Shown here piece after piece: positions 1 to 55,178 of a DNA stretch of 64,000 nucleotides (the stretch's first letter is position 1; every line of letters starts with the position of its first letter). The stretch comes from Escherichia phage MET-P1-301. The stretch lies in the sequence record PV700625. One strand, 5' to 3'. Made by a program: the position numbers and the translations under genes. A model generated the notes under the pieces. It was not told the DNA's origin, searched no databases, and worked only from the letters and a program-made list of their open reading frames with translations.

Positions 1-980
1 GTTCCCTTACCATCCCTTTGCAAAATTTTAAAATATCCTTAACAATCTCTTAACAGTTCTCACATCTTCTTAACAACTCTTCAAAGGTCTTAACAGTTTC
101 TTAACAGAACTGACAAGGATGTAACAGTTTTCTAACAAGATTTGATAGGGCTTTACAGAATCTTAACAGATGACTAACAAGAGCTAACAAGTTAATTTTA
201 AAGAGTTATTTTGTTAAGATAATTAACAAGTTCCTAACAAGTGTTTAATCTTTTTAACAAACTATTAACATGGTCACTATCTCTTTCTTATCGTTCCCTT
301 TCTCTCTTAGTGATTCCTTAAACATACCTCTTAAAAGCTCTCTATAGCCCCTTATAAGCTCTTTTAAGCCTCTTCCTAGTAGTTACACCCCAACTATACA
401 GACACCTCTTTATAGAGCTTTACAGGAGCTTTTAAGGCTATGTCAAAGGTTCTTACAAGGCTTTTACGTGGTCTTAACAGAGATTTAACAAGGGGCTAAC
501 AAGTCTCTAACAAGCATAACTATGTAGGGTTTGTTAAGAAATTGTTAAGAAAATGTTAAGGGGCTAGCATTTACGTAACTTTTAAGCTATCTATCACGTA
601 ACTTTATAGCCTCTTTTATGTAACTTTGAAGTGACTTCATAGCCCCCTTTTAGTAGTTCACAAGAATACTAACGAGATGATAAAGCTTACACCCTTATAA
701 GATTCTTTTAAGGCTCTAGGAAGCTCTATAAAGGGCTTTTTAGAGTGGGTTAATATGATTGCTTAAGTTAGGTTGATAAGGCTGTTATAGAGCTTTATAG
801 AGCGTTTTAATGGTTGCCCTTCCCTTTCGGGTTATGGGCTTATATTTAAGTTGATTTGATAAGAGGTTATAGAGTAGACTATAGAGTTATTGCTTTTTAA
901 GGTACGAGATAGATTCTATCGAATTAGTGGGATAGCTTCTAGAAAGGAAAGGGAAAGGGATTGTATAAGGATTCGATAGA
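1..980. repeat. Non-coding region with phased arrays of short repeats; candidate origin / terminal / regulator-binding region
   Basis: No ORF of 60 aa or more. TTAACA[AG]/CTAACAAG occurs more than 15 times in 40-290 and again in 470-520, mostly at 11-12 bp spacing; inverted TGTTAAG x3 at 530-560; GTAACTTT x3 at 580-630; TATAGAG pairs at 780-890. Confidence 0.5.
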
Positions 981-47384: not shown

Positions 47385-48283
47385 ATGTCACAAGCAGATA
47401 CAAGTTACAAAAATATCCTGAACCATGTTTTATCAGTCGGTGAACTGCGTACTACACGAACTGGAGATGTTATCTCTGCATTTGCTCCACCTAAGTTTCG
47501 TTTTGATATGCGAACTGGTTTCCCGCTCTTAACATCTAAACAGGTGTTTACACGGCAAGTTATTGGGGAAGCTTTATGGTTCCTGAACGGTGAGAATAAG
47601 CTTGGTGAACTCCGTTACCGTACTTGGGGTGAAAATGATGGGGAACGCTGGACTATCTGGTCAGATGATTTTAAACGCTGGTTAAGTTCTAATTATTCTT
47701 CTGAACAAGATTGGTTAGAAGATGCAGGTGGGAGAATCTATGGGGTTCAGTGGAGAAACTTTGAAGGTCATAATGGTTGTGTTGTAGACCAGCTAGATAC
47801 CTTAGTAACGAAGATGAAGGGTGATATCACAGACCGTTACATGCTTGTTAATGCTTGGAATGCAGCAGATATTGCAGCAAACTCAATGGCTTTAGCACCT
47901 TGTCATGTTCTGTTTCAGATTTATATCACTAATGAGGGTGAAGTTGACTTACAGTGGTATCAACGTTCAGTAGACACCTTTTAGGACTTCCGTTTAATAT
48001 TGCGTCTTATGGTTTCATCTTAGAAGTTCTTTGTAAGATGACTGGATACACTCCACGGTACTTGATAGGTGTCTTTGGGGATACCCAGATTTATCAGAAC
48101 CATATGAAGCAGGTTTATGAACTGATGAACAATGAAGAGTTCCATGCACCTACTTTTGAGATTGGTGTACCACTTAACACACTAAGTGACCTAAAACACC
48201 TTACTGCAAGTGATTTTATTGGTGGCATTTACAACTACCAACATGCAGGAAAGATTGAAGCACCTCTGTCAGTAGGTAAGTAA
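47385..48283 (+). CDS. thyA: Thymidylate synthase, interrupted by a single-base frameshift in a T4 run at ~47975-47984
   Basis: ThyA blocks LAPCHVLFQ and, in the next frame, LGLPFNIASYG; restoring one T gives ...QRSVDTFLGLPFNIASY... Confidence 0.85.
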
Positions 48284-48325
48284 AAACAAAAAGGCTCCTT
48301 TTACGGGAGCCTTAAAATTTTATTT
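48280..48325. terminator. Bidirectional intrinsic terminator at a convergent gene junction
   Basis: AAGGCTCC-loop-GGAGCCTT hairpin with T runs on both strands, between thyA and the leftward late operon. Confidence 0.65.
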
Positions 48326-48691
48326 TTCAGTATTCTTTGTGTTCTTTTCAGTAATAGCTTGCAAGGCTGATACTGATTGGGCCAGATTGTTCACACTGTC
48401 AGAGAATTTATCAAGAGTTTTGGTAAGTTTCGCATTCTCACCCTTAACATTCTCTAACTGGACTTTCTGGTTCTCCATCCCTAGCTGAATCAGTCTCATG
48501 TCAGACTGTAAATCACGAATAGCTGAATAGTTACTTTTGGAATAATTATCTAGCTGCTGTAACTTTGTTGTGACAGACACTTCTTGCTTACCACTTGAAA
48601 CTTGCATAGTGGTATACATCCCGATAACACTAAAAATACCAACTACAATTGCACCAATATTATTTTTAAAAGCTTCCTCTAGCCACTTCAT
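48320..48691 (-). CDS. membrane-anchored coiled-coil protein (123 aa)
   Basis: N-terminal transmembrane helix then coiled-coil-like region; last gene of the tail-fibre operon. Function open. Confidence 0.4.
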   Translation of the reverse strand: MKWLEEAFKNNIGAIVVGIFSVIGMYTTMQVSSGKQEVSVTTKLQQLDNYSKSNYSAIRDLQSDMRLIQLGMENQKVQLENVKGENAKLTKTLDKFSDSVNNLAQSVSALQAITEKNTKNTEK

Positions 48692-48964
48692 TTATTTCTC
48701 CCCCTTAAAAGCTTTTTCTAAGTTATCTACGAACTCATCATCAATAGGTGTGTCTGTTTTACTCGCAAGGTATCTTGCAAGCTTAAAGAACACTTTCTCA
48801 ATCATGTATTCACTCAGAAGGGATAAAATGAGTTTCCAGAAGAAGCTACCTAGATTTTTAGAAGAATTGCTAGGATTGTAGGCATTTAATCACCTCATCA
48901 GCCAAGATGGTGAGAATACCAATAAAGAATATTAACACCATCTTAACAATCAGTCAACAAGGGA

Positions 48965-51325
48965 TTAAGCAGTTCTTACCCAAGCCATTAACTTATAGAA
49001 CTGGTTAGTAACACTAAATGCTGAACCAGAACCAGTACCACCTGTGTTACCACTAACTGTGTGGCTGTGAGCACCAATACCAACAGTGTGGCTGTGGTTA
49101 CCTGTTGTATTCGTTACACCAGACCAGTTTCTTGATGCGTTGAAGTTGACAGGGATACCATTAGTAAAGTTGTTACCAGTATACCCTTTAGAACCTGCCT
49201 GACTACCGAGGTAGAATGCACCACTTGCTGTGTAGAAGCTACTAGCGTCACTTCTGAAGTAACCAAATGAACCAGTAATCTCCATAGTACCTCTGTTGTG
49301 GTTGTGGTTACCAGTTGTGCTAGAGGTCTTAGTACCATAGTCAAATGATGAAGTGGTAGCAGAGAAACTGTGTGTATGTGAAGGTAAGTTACCAACAGAT
49401 AACGTTACAGAGTCTGAACCACCAGTTGTAGCAACATCTGAACCGTTTGCTGCTGCAATTCTAATAGTTCTACCAACACCATTGTTCAGGTACGTCCAAG
49501 TTAGACCAGGAAGTGCTGTATTAGGGTTAACATTACTGTTAAACCACGTTACAATACCTACTGGATAGATTTTATTCAGGTCTGTAGAGTCACTTACTGC
49601 CTGTGCAATCCTCTGGTCAGTTTCAGCTTTAGTGTATGCACCGATATCTGAAGGTGTTGGTTTATCTTTGTCTGTATAGATTTTAGACCAAGCACTCTCA
49701 AAACCATAACCGTCTCTTGCTGACCTATACCAAAAACCACCATTGTTGTAGTTAAATTTTAGCTGAGCCGCTGGTGTAGAACTGCTACCCTGATACATAT
49801 GGTAGACCAGTTGTGTTGAACCACCAGATTTCCCTGTAACATTATACAGACCAGTTTTAGCATTCCAAGCAATGCCATCACTATCACCTACCTCTGTACC
49901 AGTGCCAGAAGAATAAGCAAGCATATACCTAGAGTTTGCGGTAGATTGCGTGTAATATCTAGCATCTAGGTTAGAGAAATCTGAAGGTTGAACTTGACCA
50001 GTGATTGCTAAAGTTGCATTCATTTCGAATGATGAACCAATGTTAAGCCCTTTACCTGTCTTGTAGTTATACAGGTTTAAGATGTCGCTGGCATCACCAT
50101 TCCCAACATACCACTTGCTAGTTCCATCAGCAGATTTACCTCTAATAAACAATGACGTTACAGTTTTTGCTTGTAACGCAAGGGCTTCGCCATCAGAGTT
50201 AATAATCTGCTGCGCAGAGAATGTGTTAACAGCATTAGTTCTTGCAATCGTACTTAATGTTGCTGCCGGAATATATCTAGAGTCAATGTTAGCCCAATCT
50301 GAAGGTTGGACTTGTCCAGTGATTTGCACAGTTTTATTGATACCAATAGTAGTACCTAGCGAAACCTGTGAACCTGCAAGGTAGTTATAAATATTTAGAC
50401 GTGTCTCGTCAGAATCTGTACCAACATACCATTTATTTGTTCCATCAGACTTCTTACCGAGAATGTAAAGTGCTGTACTTGCATCAGTATTCTGCAAAGT
50501 AATAGCATTAGCATTCTTCTTAGCAACAAGGTTAGTGAAAGTGTTAGCACCTGTAAAAGTGTTATTACCAGCTAACTGTGCAAATCTCTGATTAGCAACT
50601 GTCTGAGTAAAGTATCTAGCATCTAAGTTAGAGAAATCTGAAGGTTGAACTTGTCCAGTGATTGCTAAAGATTTATTAACAGAGATGTTGCTTGCAATAG
50701 TCAAGGCTGAATTGTATTTGTTATTATACAACTTCACTTCATCAGAGCCATTACTACCAATACCAACCCACCATCTAGCCGAACCATCTAGGTTTACACC
50801 TTCGATATATTGTGCATTATTTGCATTTTGGTTTCTAAGGCGAAGTAAGTTAGCATCACCTTGAATATTTTGAGTTCCAGAGAATGTGTTTGTGATAGCA
50901 ATTCTTGCGTATCTTGCATCATTCTCTTCATTAGTTCTCATACCAAGCTCATTAGGACTTGGCTTATTCAGAGTATGATAAACAGTTGCTGACCTTGAAG
51001 CATCTGCAATAGTTAGTTTAAGACCATTTGCGTTAATTTTAAAAGTCTTTAAAATATCCCCAATAGTAATCTCAGAAGAGCCTGTAGGGTCAAATACAGC
51101 CTTACCACCATAAAGTAACTTGACAATACCTAAATCCCCAGTCATAGTGCTTCCAGCAATCTGAACAAACCTTTCTAGTTTGAAGGAAGCTAAGAAGTCT
51201 TGATAGGTCATTCTACGGTCTTCATCACCCAACATTTCAGGTCTTTTCTTAACTCTGATGTGCAATAGGTCTTCTGAACGAATTGTGTCGATTGAGTTTA
51301 ACTGACTCAATTTGTAATCTGCCAT
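48965..51325 (-). CDS. Tail fibre protein (786 aa) with C-terminal His-x-His repeats
   Basis: Repetitive beta-rich sequence with NLDARY repeats; C-terminal HTHSFSATT, GNHNHNRG, GNHSHTVGIGAHSHTVSG recall T4 gp37-type tips. Confidence 0.7.
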   Translation of the reverse strand: MADYKLSQLNSIDTIRSEDLLHIRVKKRPEMLGDEDRRMTYQDFLASFKLERFVQIAGSTMTGDLGIVKLLYGGKAVFDPTGSSEITIGDILKTFKINANGLKLTIADASRSATVYHTLNKPSPNELGMRTNEENDARYARIAITNTFSGTQNIQGDANLLRLRNQNANNAQYIEGVNLDGSARWWVGIGSNGSDEVKLYNNKYNSALTIASNISVNKSLAITGQVQPSDFSNLDARYFTQTVANQRFAQLAGNNTFTGANTFTNLVAKKNANAITLQNTDASTALYILGKKSDGTNKWYVGTDSDETRLNIYNYLAGSQVSLGTTIGINKTVQITGQVQPSDWANIDSRYIPAATLSTIARTNAVNTFSAQQIINSDGEALALQAKTVTSLFIRGKSADGTSKWYVGNGDASDILNLYNYKTGKGLNIGSSFEMNATLAITGQVQPSDFSNLDARYYTQSTANSRYMLAYSSGTGTEVGDSDGIAWNAKTGLYNVTGKSGGSTQLVYHMYQGSSSTPAAQLKFNYNNGGFWYRSARDGYGFESAWSKIYTDKDKPTPSDIGAYTKAETDQRIAQAVSDSTDLNKIYPVGIVTWFNSNVNPNTALPGLTWTYLNNGVGRTIRIAAANGSDVATTGGSDSVTLSVGNLPSHTHSFSATTSSFDYGTKTSSTTGNHNHNRGTMEITGSFGYFRSDASSFYTASGAFYLGSQAGSKGYTGNNFTNGIPVNFNASRNWSGVTNTTGNHSHTVGIGAHSHTVSGNTGGTGSGSAFSVTNQFYKLMAWVRTA

Positions 51326-51371
51326 TATGAATTTTCCTCTTAAAAGGGGCTATAAAGCCCCTGTAAAGAAA

Positions 51372-52547
51372 TTAAGCTGTTCTCTGCCACACATACACTA
51401 CAAAAGATGGCTGCTCAACACTGAAAGCTTGACCACCACCAACAGAACCAGATGTCCCTGAGTGTGTATGCTCAGAGCTAGAAACAGTAACAGTGCCTGT
51501 ATGACTGTGCGAACCAATATTAACAGTGTGGCTGTGAGCACCAATTGCGACAGTATGGCTATGAGCACCAGATGATGCAGTTGTACCTGAGAAGCTATGG
51601 GTGTGAGCACCAGCTAAATCAGTATACATAGCATTACCAACACCAGCATCAGCAGATGCAGTAATAGCGTTTGTGCCACCCCTATCATTACCCCTCATAG
51701 GGACTCTATGGTTGTGGTTACCAGCATTACTTGTTGTGCCACTAAACGTGTGAGTGTGAGCACCAGCACTATTAGTCGTTTTTGTACCGTAATCAAAAGT
51801 TGATGTACTTTTTGAACCATAATCAAAACTAGAGATAGATACACTTGCAGAGTGTGTATGACCACCACCTGTTAGATAGATAGAGTGAGTATGTGCTGGT
51901 AAATTATTATTTGTTAATGCTACAGTCTGAGAACCAAACGTTGAACCAACAGGTCTGGAATCTGTATCATAACCAACTAGTGCTCTACCTTTAGAAACTA
52001 ACTCCCAAGTACCTCCACAAAGCAAGTAAGTGGATGGGTTAGCAGAGTTAACAGACAGATGAATAGTCCCCACTGGATATGATGCTTGGATAGCTTTGTA
52101 TAAATTATTAACTGCTTTCGCGGTAGCATATTTATCAGCATCTTCATTGTACAGATTGGATGTTGTCCAGTTCTGAACATTACTTAAACCGACCTGTGCT
52201 TTCGTTGTGTTATGTGGGTTACTTTTGTCGTCAATATGTTGCTGAATTAAGTTATTCACTTCCTCTGACGACATAATTTGTAGATTTGCTCTTGCCTCAG
52301 CAACATTTACAATGTCTGACAAGTTATTAGCTGCAACTAATTGAAGAGAGTTAATAACATTATCAAGACCTACTTGCGATTTCGTTACACCATGAGGGTT
52401 ATTCCTCAAAGATGCGTGAGGTGCTAACAACTGTTCAAGCGTACATCTTTTATCCTCAACACCTTGCTTAAGATGGAAGATATCACTCAAATCAATTGGT
52501 AAGGCCGCTTGTGGCAAGGCACTAATTTGAATTTCACCTACTGCCAT
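51372..52547 (-). CDS. Tail fibre protein (391 aa) with His-x-His repeats
   Basis: AHTHSIYLTGGGHTHS, GAHTHTFSGTT, GNHNHR, GAHSHTVAIGAHSHTVNIGSHSHTG. Confidence 0.65.
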   Translation of the reverse strand: MAVGEIQISALPQAALPIDLSDIFHLKQGVEDKRCTLEQLLAPHASLRNNPHGVTKSQVGLDNVINSLQLVAANNLSDIVNVAEARANLQIMSSEEVNNLIQQHIDDKSNPHNTTKAQVGLSNVQNWTTSNLYNEDADKYATAKAVNNLYKAIQASYPVGTIHLSVNSANPSTYLLCGGTWELVSKGRALVGYDTDSRPVGSTFGSQTVALTNNNLPAHTHSIYLTGGGHTHSASVSISSFDYGSKSTSTFDYGTKTTNSAGAHTHTFSGTTSNAGNHNHRVPMRGNDRGGTNAITASADAGVGNAMYTDLAGAHTHSFSGTTASSGAHSHTVAIGAHSHTVNIGSHSHTGTVTVSSSEHTHSGTSGSVGGGQAFSVEQPSFVVYVWQRTA

Positions 52548-52549
52548 TA

Positions 52550-52852
52550 TTAAGCTCCTACATATTCATATGTGTAAAGGTTTCTTGTACTTGTTGATGC
52601 AGTCCCTGTCTCAGACTTAATGAGATTCCAACCATTAGCCACTAAATCTGGTTGCTCAGTTGCATATGAACGAACTTCACCAACAGTGCCATTTACTTTA
52701 TTCAGCAGGTAGTTGATAATATAGTTGAACCACTGTCTACCCATAGGTTCACCCTTTAAAAGACCTGTCTCTTGAACTTCCGGTGGTGGTAAAACTTTTA
52801 ACTGATTACCATCAGTATCTACTTCGTTTGTAGACCAATTTAGAACTGCCAT
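52550..52852 (-). CDS. hypothetical tail/baseplate-associated protein (100 aa)
   Basis: Position between baseplate and fibre genes. Confidence 0.4.
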
Positions 52853-53706
52853 TAAGAATTTCCTTCTTGTTGTGATTTATCTTTTCTGCCTTTGACAATT
52901 TGCGCAACCTCAGCCATGATTCCGTATGCACCACCTGCAATAGCTTCTTTACCAACGATGAAATAACCACTATTATTAGACCTATCTACAGTCATATAAT
53001 CATCGCTCTGCGAGTTTGCTGTTCTGTCAACCTTAAAGTAACCATCAATAACACCAGCATCTGCAAGGCTACCTACTAAGTTGGACTCCAGAGAGCCACC
53101 AGTATTATTTGTGACAAGACCTCTGTTAGCATCAGTTACAAACCAGTTCTCTTTATCATCAACAATAGCAAGTGATGAATCAGCAACCTCTACAGGTGTC
53201 CAAGCAGTCCCATTTAAAGTAACATCTCTTAAGATAACAGCGGAGCCAGTAGTTGTTGCAGAAATCTTTGACAGCGTATATGCAGCATCTAGAACGCTTT
53301 TTCTAGTGTTGATACGGATAACGATACCACCAGTCTTAGGAGTAATATGCTCAAAAATCTGAGAGAAAGTTGCACCATATAGTGTCATAATTGCTTTTTG
53401 CAAGAATGTTGGGGTGGTGTCAGAGCGTCTTAGGAAGATTTGGATATAAAGCATAGCTCTATATGTTTCATCATCTGCACCTAAAGGTCTAGGAACTTTA
53501 ATCAGTGAGCCAATATTATCAAGTTGTTGGCCTACTGACGTCCTGATATTTCTCTCTGTGTGCATCTGCCAGCAAACATCCTCTAATGTTTGTAGCTCAT
53601 CAGTGATTGCTTTCAAGATACTTGTATAGATAAATTTATCTTTAAACTGTGTTACAGTCCTTTCATCAAGTGTTTTATAATAAACACTATCAATCTTTTC
53701 AAACAT
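52852..53706 (-). CDS. Baseplate protein (P2 gpI-like position)
   Basis: Synteny downstream of the gpJ-like gene. Confidence 0.45.
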
Positions 53707-53708
53707 TA

Positions 53709-55177
53709 TTACTCCTTAGTGATGGTATACTGGCTACTTTCCCAAACAGTATATTGGTCACCGTCAACAGTAATTCTTGCTGTAGTATATTGTCCGTCAC
53801 TAGGTGGAACTGATTGGCTGTTTGATAATGCTACTTTCACCTCATTAATCTCAATACCTTTAATTACATCATAGATATATCCGTAGATTCTGTTAGGGAT
53901 AACGTCATTACCAACCTTAAGAGTTCTTCCGTAGGCATTAATACCTTGTACAATACTGTCTCTGATATCCTCTTCAGGGATTGTCAAGCTTTCTTCGTCA
54001 TATAATGAGTAAGATACTTTAACAAATGCGTATTTTGGTGTTGGTCTGCTAAAGTAAATATTATGTGCTAAACCACCTAAATCATGGGCTGTACCAAAAA
54101 TTGAGCCGTAAGCTCTAATACCAGCAGGTTTTGTATCCCAGATTGCTTGAGCAACATTATCATTTTGACCACCGACTACGACAATCTTAAAAGATTTTGG
54201 TGGAAGACCTTCTGAGTTCGTCTCTTCAGTATCATTTTCAACACCTGAAGCATCTGAGACACCTTGAACCCTTTTAACAGCAGCTACAATTGCATCCAAA
54301 GTCCCTACACCAGTAACTGCTAAGGATTCTAAATACCTCTGTCTAAGTTCTGTGTCAGTTTCTTCGTTTCTACCAGTTGTTAAGTCATACCTGTTATAGA
54401 TGCTGTCAAGGCCATCAACAGTGGTTTCAATCTCAATAAGAGTCCCAGCTAAAGCAGGAATAGCACCAACCTCTTCAGCTACTACATCTGAGATAGTTGT
54501 AATCTTTGTAAATGTCAGAAACGTTGTCGCAGTAACAACCATAGGGTTTGTTCTTGCAATAATATCACCCTCATCTTTATAGACTCTTAATGAGGCTCCA
54601 TCATTGATAACTTCTGCTTTTGCTACAATACCACCATTAATAGCCTCTGCTAATTTAGTTAGTAGTGTGGTAATTGTGTCTGATGAGGTTGGTTTATATG
54701 AGAAAATAACGTTATCAATAATAATAACATAATCTGCATCAGTTCGTAAAGAGTTAACTTCAAGAACAGCTTCAACACAATATGATGGGGTAAGGGTAAT
54801 ATTGTTAACTGGATAAAAGATATTTCCAGCAGTACTTCTCAATCTTGTTGTTGAAGAGATGGTAGCACCAGTTGTTCCAGTGAACTCAACCTGACCCCTT
54901 GTTGCCTGAGCAACATATCTGTATACAGCATTCAAAGCTGTGATATCATCAAGGTTAAATCCTTCAGCCTTGTCAATTGTCCCACCGTCATAGATTTCTG
55001 ATAGAATCTCATGTGTATCTGCTAAAGACCTTGCAATTGAAGCTAGGAAGAGACCTAATTGGCTATCTTCAGAAACGTCAAGGTTTGGTGAAATATCTCT
55101 AAGAAGTCTTGATTTGATATTATCAAAAATTTCCTGATATCTTAGAGTTTGTAATCCTGTTGTAGTTAATCCTGCCA

Positions 55178-55178
<1 letters not shown>
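53709..55178 (-). CDS. Baseplate J-like protein (T4 gp6 / P2 gpJ family)
   Basis: Size (489 aa) and position between gpW-like and gpI-like genes. Confidence 0.5.

Follow-up and report, generated by a model that had tools for sequence, protein, structure and literature searches.

We examined a 64,000-nucleotide (nt) stretch of DNA from Escherichia phage MET-P1-301 (sequence record PV700625), hereafter the window, in which an earlier note, made from the sequence without database searches, had placed two tail fibre genes at positions 48965-52547. This interval is occupied exactly by two intact open reading frames (ORFs), both on the minus strand, which encode proteins of 786 and 391 amino acids (aa), referred to here as the long tail fibre (LTF) and the short tail fibre (STF). 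In a PHROG search, the LTF matched phrog_4277, 'tail fiber protein', over residues 1-786 (E=0), and the STF matched phrog_2097 over residues 1-390 (E=2e-139). Pfam assigned three gp37_trimer domains, one gp37_C domain and a weak Gp10_C domain to the LTF, and NCBIfam contained zero matches for either fibre.

The two genes are the last of five that are encoded on one strand in the order wedge 2, wedge 1, platform, STF and LTF, in full synteny with the baseplate module of phage Bas63 (MZ501086). The identities of the encoded proteins to Bas63 gp23 through gp27 were, in the same order, 95, 84, 87, 76 and 64%. Because both the five-gene order and these identities match MZ501086, we assign the STF and the LTF as the orthologues of gp26 and gp27, respectively. 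The identification of two tail fibre genes in the earlier note was thus borne out by full-length PHROG tail-fibre matches and by complete synteny with Bas63.

Judged from its sequence, the locus consists of two ordinary, previously described tail-fibre genes of a Felixounavirus, i.e., a Felix O1-like myovirus of E. coli. Approximately 230 Felixounavirus records match the fibre locus, which is 96% identical to that of Escherichia phage vB_EcoM-Ro111lw across 94% of its length, and positions 40000-64000 of the window are 95% identical to phage vB_EcoM_H12 over 96% of their length. The identity to phages of E. coli O157/STEC thus amounts to approximately 95-96%. The fibre lengths, 391 and 786 aa, compare with 391 and 792 aa in phage Sf14. 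Neither allele is new and the feature is already known: protein P0121 in public assemblies is identical to the LTF, and 14 phage records contain an STF of at least 99% identity. The tip alleles match those of phages from E. coli O157:H7: the LTF is 100% identical to that of E. coli O157 typing phage 1 in its head and tip, and vB_EcoM_E9 and KEP1, both of which were isolated on O157:H7 hosts, are among the 14 STF records. Homology of such fibres to the T4 gp37 adhesin has been known since 2015, when it was reported for aa 146-362 of gp74 and aa 584-780 of gp75 of phage VpaE1 (PMC4690856), and the architecture of collar, needle and head was described in 2025, when cryo-electron microscopy (cryo-EM) of Bas63 revealed it in both fibres (PMC12609058).

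The earlier note had also stated that both proteins end in runs of the repeat G-[AN]-H-[ST]-H-[ST]-[VF]. We found nine His-x-His (HxH) motifs in the STF, at residues 219, 230, 264, 278, 315, 329, 338, 347 and 360, and four in the LTF, at residues 650, 674, 744 and 753. The excess of such motifs is real; when residues were shuffled, the mean HxH count was 1.4 for the STF and 0.14 for the LTF, and the observed counts were reached in 0 of 20,000 shuffles. The strict pattern, however, was matched by only four of the nine STF motifs and two of the four LTF motifs, the others being looser variants (PSHTHSF, GNHNHN, GGHTHSA, GSHSHTG and SEHTHSG). Nor do the motifs form a terminal run. They span approximately the last 140 residues in two blocks around a His-free insert (STF 281-314, LTF 677-743), and the final motif lies about 30 residues short of the C-terminus, in the region where the two fibres have the motif GxGxAFSV...W.RTA in common. 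The histidine columns were 100% conserved in 119 LTF relatives, and in 72 STF relatives their conservation was 0.6-1.0, mostly 0.8-1.0. At the DNA level, HxH units are encoded by 27-nt repeats, which are arranged in tandem in the STF gene (9-residue units) and are also shared by the STF and LTF genes.

Sequence searches related these motifs to the needle of T4 gp37. A search of the PDB aligned STF residues 145-362 with residues 17-227 of the T4 gp37 tip crystal structure 2XGF (E=1.8e-26) and LTF residues 644-765 with the same structure (E=1.4e-3). When full-length T4 gp37 was used as a tblastn query, the STF and the LTF were the only matches in the 64-kb window (3.9e-26 and 9e-9, respectively). 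The two tips are themselves paralogous, with 33% identity between STF 157-342 and LTF 587-757 (E=8e-17). In a three-way alignment, all seven T4 motifs (883, 915 and 929 in the first block; 966, 980, 989 and 998 in the second) were paired with motifs of the STF, where the intervals of 14, 9 and 9 residues are exactly those of T4 966-998. Close to the collar, the STF has two additional HxH motifs. The set of the LTF is reduced to two on either side of its 67-aa insert, without counterparts of the T4 929 and 966 motifs. STF residues G270, G276, H278 and H280 correspond to T4 G921, G927, H929 and H931, and STF G313, H315, H317 and F319 correspond to T4 G964, H966, H968 and F970. The T4 stem residues G921, G964, H929 and H931 were reported to be essential, and F970 to form the trimer core (PMC6957217). 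Among the 72 STF homologues, G270, G276, G313, H278, H280, H315 and H317 were kept in 55-71 sequences, and position 319 was always F, V or I. The matches to 2XGF, the tblastn result and the seven aligned motifs support the proposal in the earlier note that the repeats form a needle of the T4 gp37 type.

A simpler explanation for such repeats would be that they are low-complexity Ser/Thr/Gly/His sequence without any specific structure. The composition of the region is indeed biased, and HMMER gave bias scores of 31.6 and 34.9 on the 2XGF alignments. However, the motifs have T4-identical spacing and match T4 position by position, and the observed number of motifs was never attained by shuffling. 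Furthermore, the residues between the blocks vary freely among the 72-119 homologues, in which the His columns and the Gly columns that flank them are near-invariant. Because of the T4 register and this pattern of conservation, we consider the low-complexity explanation excluded and almost certainly wrong.

Domain maps of both fibres were derived from the borders reported for T4 gp37, in which residues 811-881 and 1010-1026 form the collar, 882-931 and 960-1009 the stem, and 932-959 the tip subdomain (PMC6957217). The resulting features are listed in Table 1, together with the genes of the baseplate module.

Table 1. Genes of the fibre and baseplate module of phage MET-P1-301 and domains of the two fibre proteins (positions in the window; residue ranges in the protein).
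Feature	Residues	Position	Strand	Evidence or remark
LTF, long tail fibre gene	786 aa	48965..51325	-	Homologue of Bas63 gp27, Sf14 gp53, VpaE1 gp75
LTF N-terminal region, near-invariant	1-135	50921..51325	-	Identity 0.91-1.00 across 119 homologues
LTF shaft, three repeated modules	150-450	49976..50878	-	Variable cores, conserved 'ITGQVQPSD' linkers; Pfam gp37_trimer x3
LTF knob domain	472-581	49583..49912	-	Pfam gp37_C, E=3.8e-27; common to tail fibres Mu protein S and P2 protein H
LTF collar (T4 gp37 D10 / gp10 C-terminal type)	584-649	49379..49576	-	Aligns with T4 gp37 collar
LTF ascending needle strand	650-676	49298..49378	-	HxH at 650, 674; His columns 100% conserved
LTF head insert (67 aa), candidate receptor-binding surface	677-743	49097..49297	-	Between HxH blocks, as T4 tip subdomain 932-959
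LTF descending strand and C-terminal return	744-786	48968..49096	-	HxH at 744, 753; aligns to T4 980-1026; invariant among homologues
LTF descending strand	744-757			Map from T4 borders
LTF C-terminal return	758-786			Map from T4 borders
STF, short tail fibre gene	391 aa	51372..52547	-	Homologue of Bas63 gp26, Sf14 gp52, VpaE1 gp74
STF N-terminal attachment region (putative) and helical shaft	1-143	52119..52547	-	Helices at 37-119 in AlphaFold2 model
STF collar	144-218	51894..52118	-	2XGF alignment begins at residue 145; pLDDT 89-93
STF ascending needle strand	219-280	51708..51893	-	HxH at 219, 230, 264, 278
STF hypervariable head insert, candidate receptor-binding surface	281-314	51606..51707	-	Aligns with T4 tip subdomain
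STF descending strand and C-terminal return to collar	315-391	51375..51605	-	HxH at 315, 329, 338, 347, 360
STF descending strand	315-362			Map from T4 borders
STF C-terminal return	363-391			Map from T4 borders
100-aa protein, LTF platform homologue		52550..52852	-	87% identical to Bas63 gp25; phrog_4141; role per PMC12609058
Baseplate wedge 1		52852..53706	-	84% identical to Bas63 gp24; phrog_4017/phrog_6 assigned across wedge pair
Baseplate wedge 2 / Baseplate_J		53709..55178	-	Pfam Baseplate_J, E=6.6e-15; 95% identical to Bas63 gp23

The structures of both fibres were predicted as monomers with AlphaFold2. The model of the STF, with a predicted local distance difference test (pLDDT) value of 70.7, contained a long beta-hairpin that runs outward over residues 222-272 and back over residues 317-365, followed by a final strand at 385-389. 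The turn of the hairpin, residues 288-307, was of low confidence (pLDDT <50). A reversal of the chain at the tip would be consistent both with the alignment to T4 residues 1010-1026 and with the hairpin of the STF monomer, although the turn had a low pLDDT and the tip model of the LTF was unusable. The collar of the STF resembled the C-terminal domain of T4 gp10 in the sequence search (2fkk, E=2.6e-6) as well as in Foldseek (probability 0.99, 36% identity), and it scored 67.2 bits against Pfam PF21939 (Gp10_C), above the gathering threshold of 27 bits. The Foldseek search with the STF monomer also returned pore toxins with long hairpins, which we judged to be spurious. For the LTF, the AlphaFold2 model and Foldseek support shaft domains that resemble those of T4 gp34, Mu and T7 gp17. 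Its shaft modules were predicted with pLDDT values of approximately 80 and matched T4 gp34 (4UXG, E=4e-5), and residues 468-575 matched the Mu tail fibre structure 8ju3 by sequence (E=3e-26) and by Foldseek (1.4e-6).

The two fibres were compared with their homologues to determine where the sequences vary. In the 72 STF homologues, mean identity to the protein of the window was 0.7-0.85 for the N-terminus, the collar and the C-terminus, whereas residues 281-310 had an identity of 0.11-0.18 and a column entropy above 3 bits, versus approximately 0.8 bits in the flanks. The 72 homologues carried 66 distinct heads, which fell into 35 clusters at 60% identity. Within the shaft of the STF, the 15-residue motif NPHxxTKxQVGLxNV occurs twice, at residues 49-63 and 109-123. 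PHROG matches to this motif region included tail and virion proteins from a wide range of unrelated phages, jumbo phages among them.

The 119 LTF homologues were essentially invariant over residues 1-135, in the collar (556-660) and at the C-terminus (741-786), whereas the head (676-740) and the shaft modules at 150-225, 256-330, 361-435 and 466-555 vary and recombine independently. Within the tip, variability is greatest in the head, which falls into seven clusters among the relatives. Two tip architectures were prevalent: of 120 sequences, 96 combine 2+2 HxH motifs with a 67-aa head, and 22 combine 3+3 HxH motifs with a head of approximately 31 aa. The shaft modules are reflected in the DNA, where 74-nt direct repeats are spaced at 318 and 339 nt. 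O157 typing phages have LTF alleles of 848 aa, in which a different module stands at the position of the knob and the gp37_C domain is absent.

Based on these results, the locus very probably encodes two lateral Felixounavirus fibres, each with a receptor-binding tip of the T4 gp37 type. By analogy with T4 and Bas63, on which the proposed trimers, metal sites, attachment sites and receptor all draw, each fibre would be a homotrimer with its N-terminus docked on the baseplate. In Bas63, the STF is attached to wedge 2A and the LTF to a gp9-like platform in the same virion (PMC12609058). The N-terminal region of our STF would likewise be its attachment region, as suggested by the binding of the Bas63 STF N-terminus to wedge 2A, and would dock on wedge protein 2. 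LTF residues 1-135 would form a baseplate-binding domain, which is expected to dock on the 100-aa platform protein, the product of a gene just upstream. From the collar, each chain is proposed to run outward as an HxH strand, form the variable head insert, return as a second HxH strand and rejoin the collar through its C-terminal segment. One HxH motif from each of three chains would provide six His ligands for one axial metal ion, which is Fe2+ in T4, and up to nine such sites in the STF and four in the LTF would staple a thin, six-stranded beta-needle.

In this architecture, the HxH ladder would serve as a conserved scaffold, and host specificity would reside in the head inserts, STF 281-314 and LTF 677-743; the swappable shaft modules of the long fibre probably contribute to it as well. 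Because the chain of a T4-type tip reverses at the head, between the HxH blocks, and its C-terminus returns to the collar, the head inserts are likely to make the receptor contacts, as the homology with T4 suggests. The receptor is most likely to be the core sugars of lipopolysaccharide (LPS), as in characterised relatives; that of VpaE1 is an LPS-core carbohydrate (PMC4690856). The suggestion in the earlier note that the HxH tips are the receptor-binding determinants therefore needs to be refined: variability among relatives does peak inside the tip, but the HxH motifs are the conserved scaffold, and the variable part is the insert rather than the C-terminus.

Repeated DNA that encodes the HxH units probably provides the recombination points at which head cassettes and needle length are exchanged. 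The 'His boxes' of T-even gp37 were reportedly described as such recombination points by Tetart, Krisch and colleagues. Some Felixounavirus STF and LTF heads, in relatives rather than in the phage of the window, are nearly identical to the T4 gp37 tip sequence, which shows directly that the T-even and Felix O1-like lineages have exchanged tip cassettes.

Several observations weigh against two gp37-type tips. Foldseek comparison of the STF monomer with the PDB found the gp10-type collar and not 2XGF, although a miss of this kind is expected for a single chain of an intertwined trimer. The LTF was less well supported than the STF. Its match to 2XGF (see above) is weak by itself, its Gp10_C score of 23.6 bits falls below the Pfam cut-off and fails alone, and its AlphaFold2 monomer had a pLDDT of 51, with a tip below 50 that was unusable. 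T4 gp37 requires the chaperone gp38, and no homologue of gp38 was detected by tblastn in the 64-kb window, where the best hit had an E value of 0.21; dependence on gp38 is a trait of the T4 system and not of the fold. The studies cited here report metal occupancy or metal identity for no Felixounavirus fibre, and PMC13419801 and a 2026 preprint on receptor prediction contained no specific information on such fibres. Finally, in a related Felixounavirus, mutations selected by host challenge were located at LTF residues 497 and 534, in the Mu S-like knob and not in the HxH tip (PMC6669636).

These mutations also favour a different assignment of host specificity, in which the HxH tip of the LTF has a chiefly structural role, with host range being determined by the shaft modules or by the knob (472-581) that resembles Mu S and P2 H. 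Consistent with this possibility, the four shaft modules are as variable as the head and recombine independently, and the LTF of O157 typing phage 1, the tip of which is identical to ours, has only 20-53% identity over residues ~361-540. The 848-aa alleles lack the gp37_C domain entirely, the authors of the Bas63 study found that the beta-helix repeats of the LTF, in addition to the highly variable tips, were unexpectedly variable (PMC12609058), and the authors of the Sf14 study suggested receptor contacts proximal to the tip. On the other hand, binding of LPS and OmpC has been mapped to the homologous tip subdomain of T4 (PMC6957217), and within the otherwise invariant tip of the LTF the head is the most variable part, with at least seven sequence clusters. 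A mainly structural tip is therefore somewhat unlikely in our estimation, and a role of the shaft or knob is compatible with specificity based in the head, the two not being mutually exclusive.

The relationship between the two fibres was considered as well, since the second gene had been proposed to encode either an alternative or a partner fibre. If the STF and LTF were alternatives, only one of them would be on display at any moment, as phage Mu achieves with its invertible G segment. The genes are adjacent, their tips are paralogous and the LTF has a domain in common with the Mu tail fibre S, as this arrangement would lead one to expect. However, there are zero inverted repeats of at least 18 nt in positions 47500-53500, and the two genes lie on the same strand with separate start codons. 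Both fibres are present on one particle, at separate sites of the baseplate, in cryo-EM of Bas63 and of Sf14, where two retracted sets of 391 and 792 aa were described in 2025 (PMC11821841), and both are included in the list of VpaE1 virion structural proteins (PMC4690856). Thus, Mu-like alternative display is effectively excluded, and the partner half of the proposal holds. By analogy with T4 gp12, the STF might be a second-step, irreversible LPS binder that is deployed after a signal from the LTF, rather than an independent primary receptor-binding protein. In Bas63, the STFs are retracted along the sheath at full occupancy and the LTFs are partly released, leading the authors to suggest behaviour similar to that of the T4 short fibres (PMC12609058), and the collar of the STF belongs to the gp10/gp12 type. 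In contrast, a PDB sequence search with the STF (E up to 1) yielded gp37 and gp10 chains and no gp12, and the presence of a hypervariable head on a needle of the gp37 type suggests that selection has been for changing specificity and not for binding to a conserved core. We regard a gp12-like role as possible but less likely than not.

Comparison with characterised systems helps to define what is particular to these fibres. They resemble the T4 gp37 tip in having a collar, an HxH stem, a tip insert, a second HxH stem and a C-terminal return, in that order. T4 gp37, however, is a 1026-aa subunit that forms the distal quarter of a four-protein fibre, while the fibres here are single short proteins; the number of HxH motifs is seven in T4 versus nine in the STF and four in the LTF, the head comprises 28 aa in T4 versus 67 aa in the LTF, and the C-terminal motif of the STF and LTF is unlike that of T4. 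Bas63 (Escherichia phage JohannRWettstein) has orthologous fibres with the same N-termini, collars and C-termini, although its STF has 2+5 HxH motifs versus 4+5 here, its LTF has 3+3 motifs and a short head versus 2+2 and 67 aa, and its head sequences are unrelated to ours. The published models of the Bas63 fibres are AlphaFold predictions that were flexibly fitted into low-resolution density (PMC12609058). Sf14 and VpaE1 have the same Ounavirinae two-fibre arrangement with different tip alleles, the tip of VpaE1 gp75 being 54% identical to T4. Mu S (PDB 8ju3) and P2 gpH have the domain of LTF 468-575 in common with the LTF, where it differs in being followed by a collar, needle and head tip and therefore lies in the middle of the fibre and not near its distal end. 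The genome of Sf14 contains no homologues of Mu-type chaperones, according to its authors (PMC11821841). Finally, lambda Stf and side tail fibres of E. coli prophages (PF07484 Collar and PF03335 repeats) have an HxH needle with 49-58% identity over STF residues 230-344, and their N-terminal and shaft parts are unrelated. Lambda carries the assembly protein Tfa; no Tfa-like protein was apparent beside the STF and LTF genes.

A more speculative reading, which we think improbable, is that the number of HxH sites is an adaptive setting, with cassettes of outer rungs and head being swapped at the HxH-coding repeats. If this were true, needle length, which ranges from 2+2 to 5+5 rungs among relatives, would be tuned to the depth of the LPS-core receptor under different O-antigens, and the fibres would fold without a dedicated chaperone of the gp38 or Tfa type, the metal ladder setting the register of the trimer. 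Of more immediate use, Felix O1-like phages serve in the typing of Salmonella and E. coli O157 and in their biocontrol, and both fibre genes offer a practical handle on the host range of these phages. The residue-level map obtained for this phage separates the scaffold (collar, HxH rungs and C-terminal return) from the parts likely to determine specificity, namely STF 281-314, LTF 677-743 and the LTF shaft modules. It marks cut-and-join sites for chimeric fibres and raises no new biological question.

The DNA between and downstream of the fibre genes contained further features. Between the STF stop codon and the LTF start, at 51336-51371 on the minus strand, there is a stable hairpin, GGGGCU-UUAU-AGCCCC followed by UUUU (-16.8 kcal/mol, z=-3.1). 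In an extension of its stem, UUUCUU is base-paired to the LTF ribosome-binding site AAGAGG, and the same fold is present in Ro111lw and Bas63. This hairpin could attenuate or gate expression of the LTF relative to the STF. Just downstream of the LTF, at ~48688-48885 on the minus strand, the gene for a 65-aa hydrophobic protein homologous to Bas63 gp28 is broken by an A6-to-A5 change at ~48851 and carries a further insertion of 1 nt close to the stop codon. Two genes downstream of the LTF lies a 123-aa ORF (48320-48691, minus strand), which was considered as a fibre chaperone and rejected; it has a hydrophobic N-terminus, gave only weak, coiled-coil-type hits and belongs to phrog_4038, a PHROG without an assigned function. 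Gene order suggests that its equivalent in Sf14 is gp55, which is located two genes after the LTF and is tabulated as 'holin or lysozyme' (PMC11821841).

Farther downstream, the thymidylate synthase gene (47385-48283, plus strand) is split into two ORFs, 47385..47984 and 47954..48283, by a 1-nt deletion in a T5 run (~47978), as compared to the single 900-nt gene of Ro111lw. This may represent either a frameshifted gene or a homopolymer error in sequencing or assembly. The presence of a second discrepancy in homopolymer length nearby (~48851) suggests sequence errors rather than biology. The STF and LTF ORFs are intact despite these indels. Between the converging thymidylate synthase gene (plus strand) and the 123-aa ORF (minus strand) there is a terminator-like hairpin at 48291-48313; on both strands, a T-rich stretch with at least 5 T among 8 bases comes after it. 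A scan of positions 1-64000 detected no tRNA genes, and over the same range the GC skew changes sign at ~38000 and ~48000, matching the switch of the coding strand.

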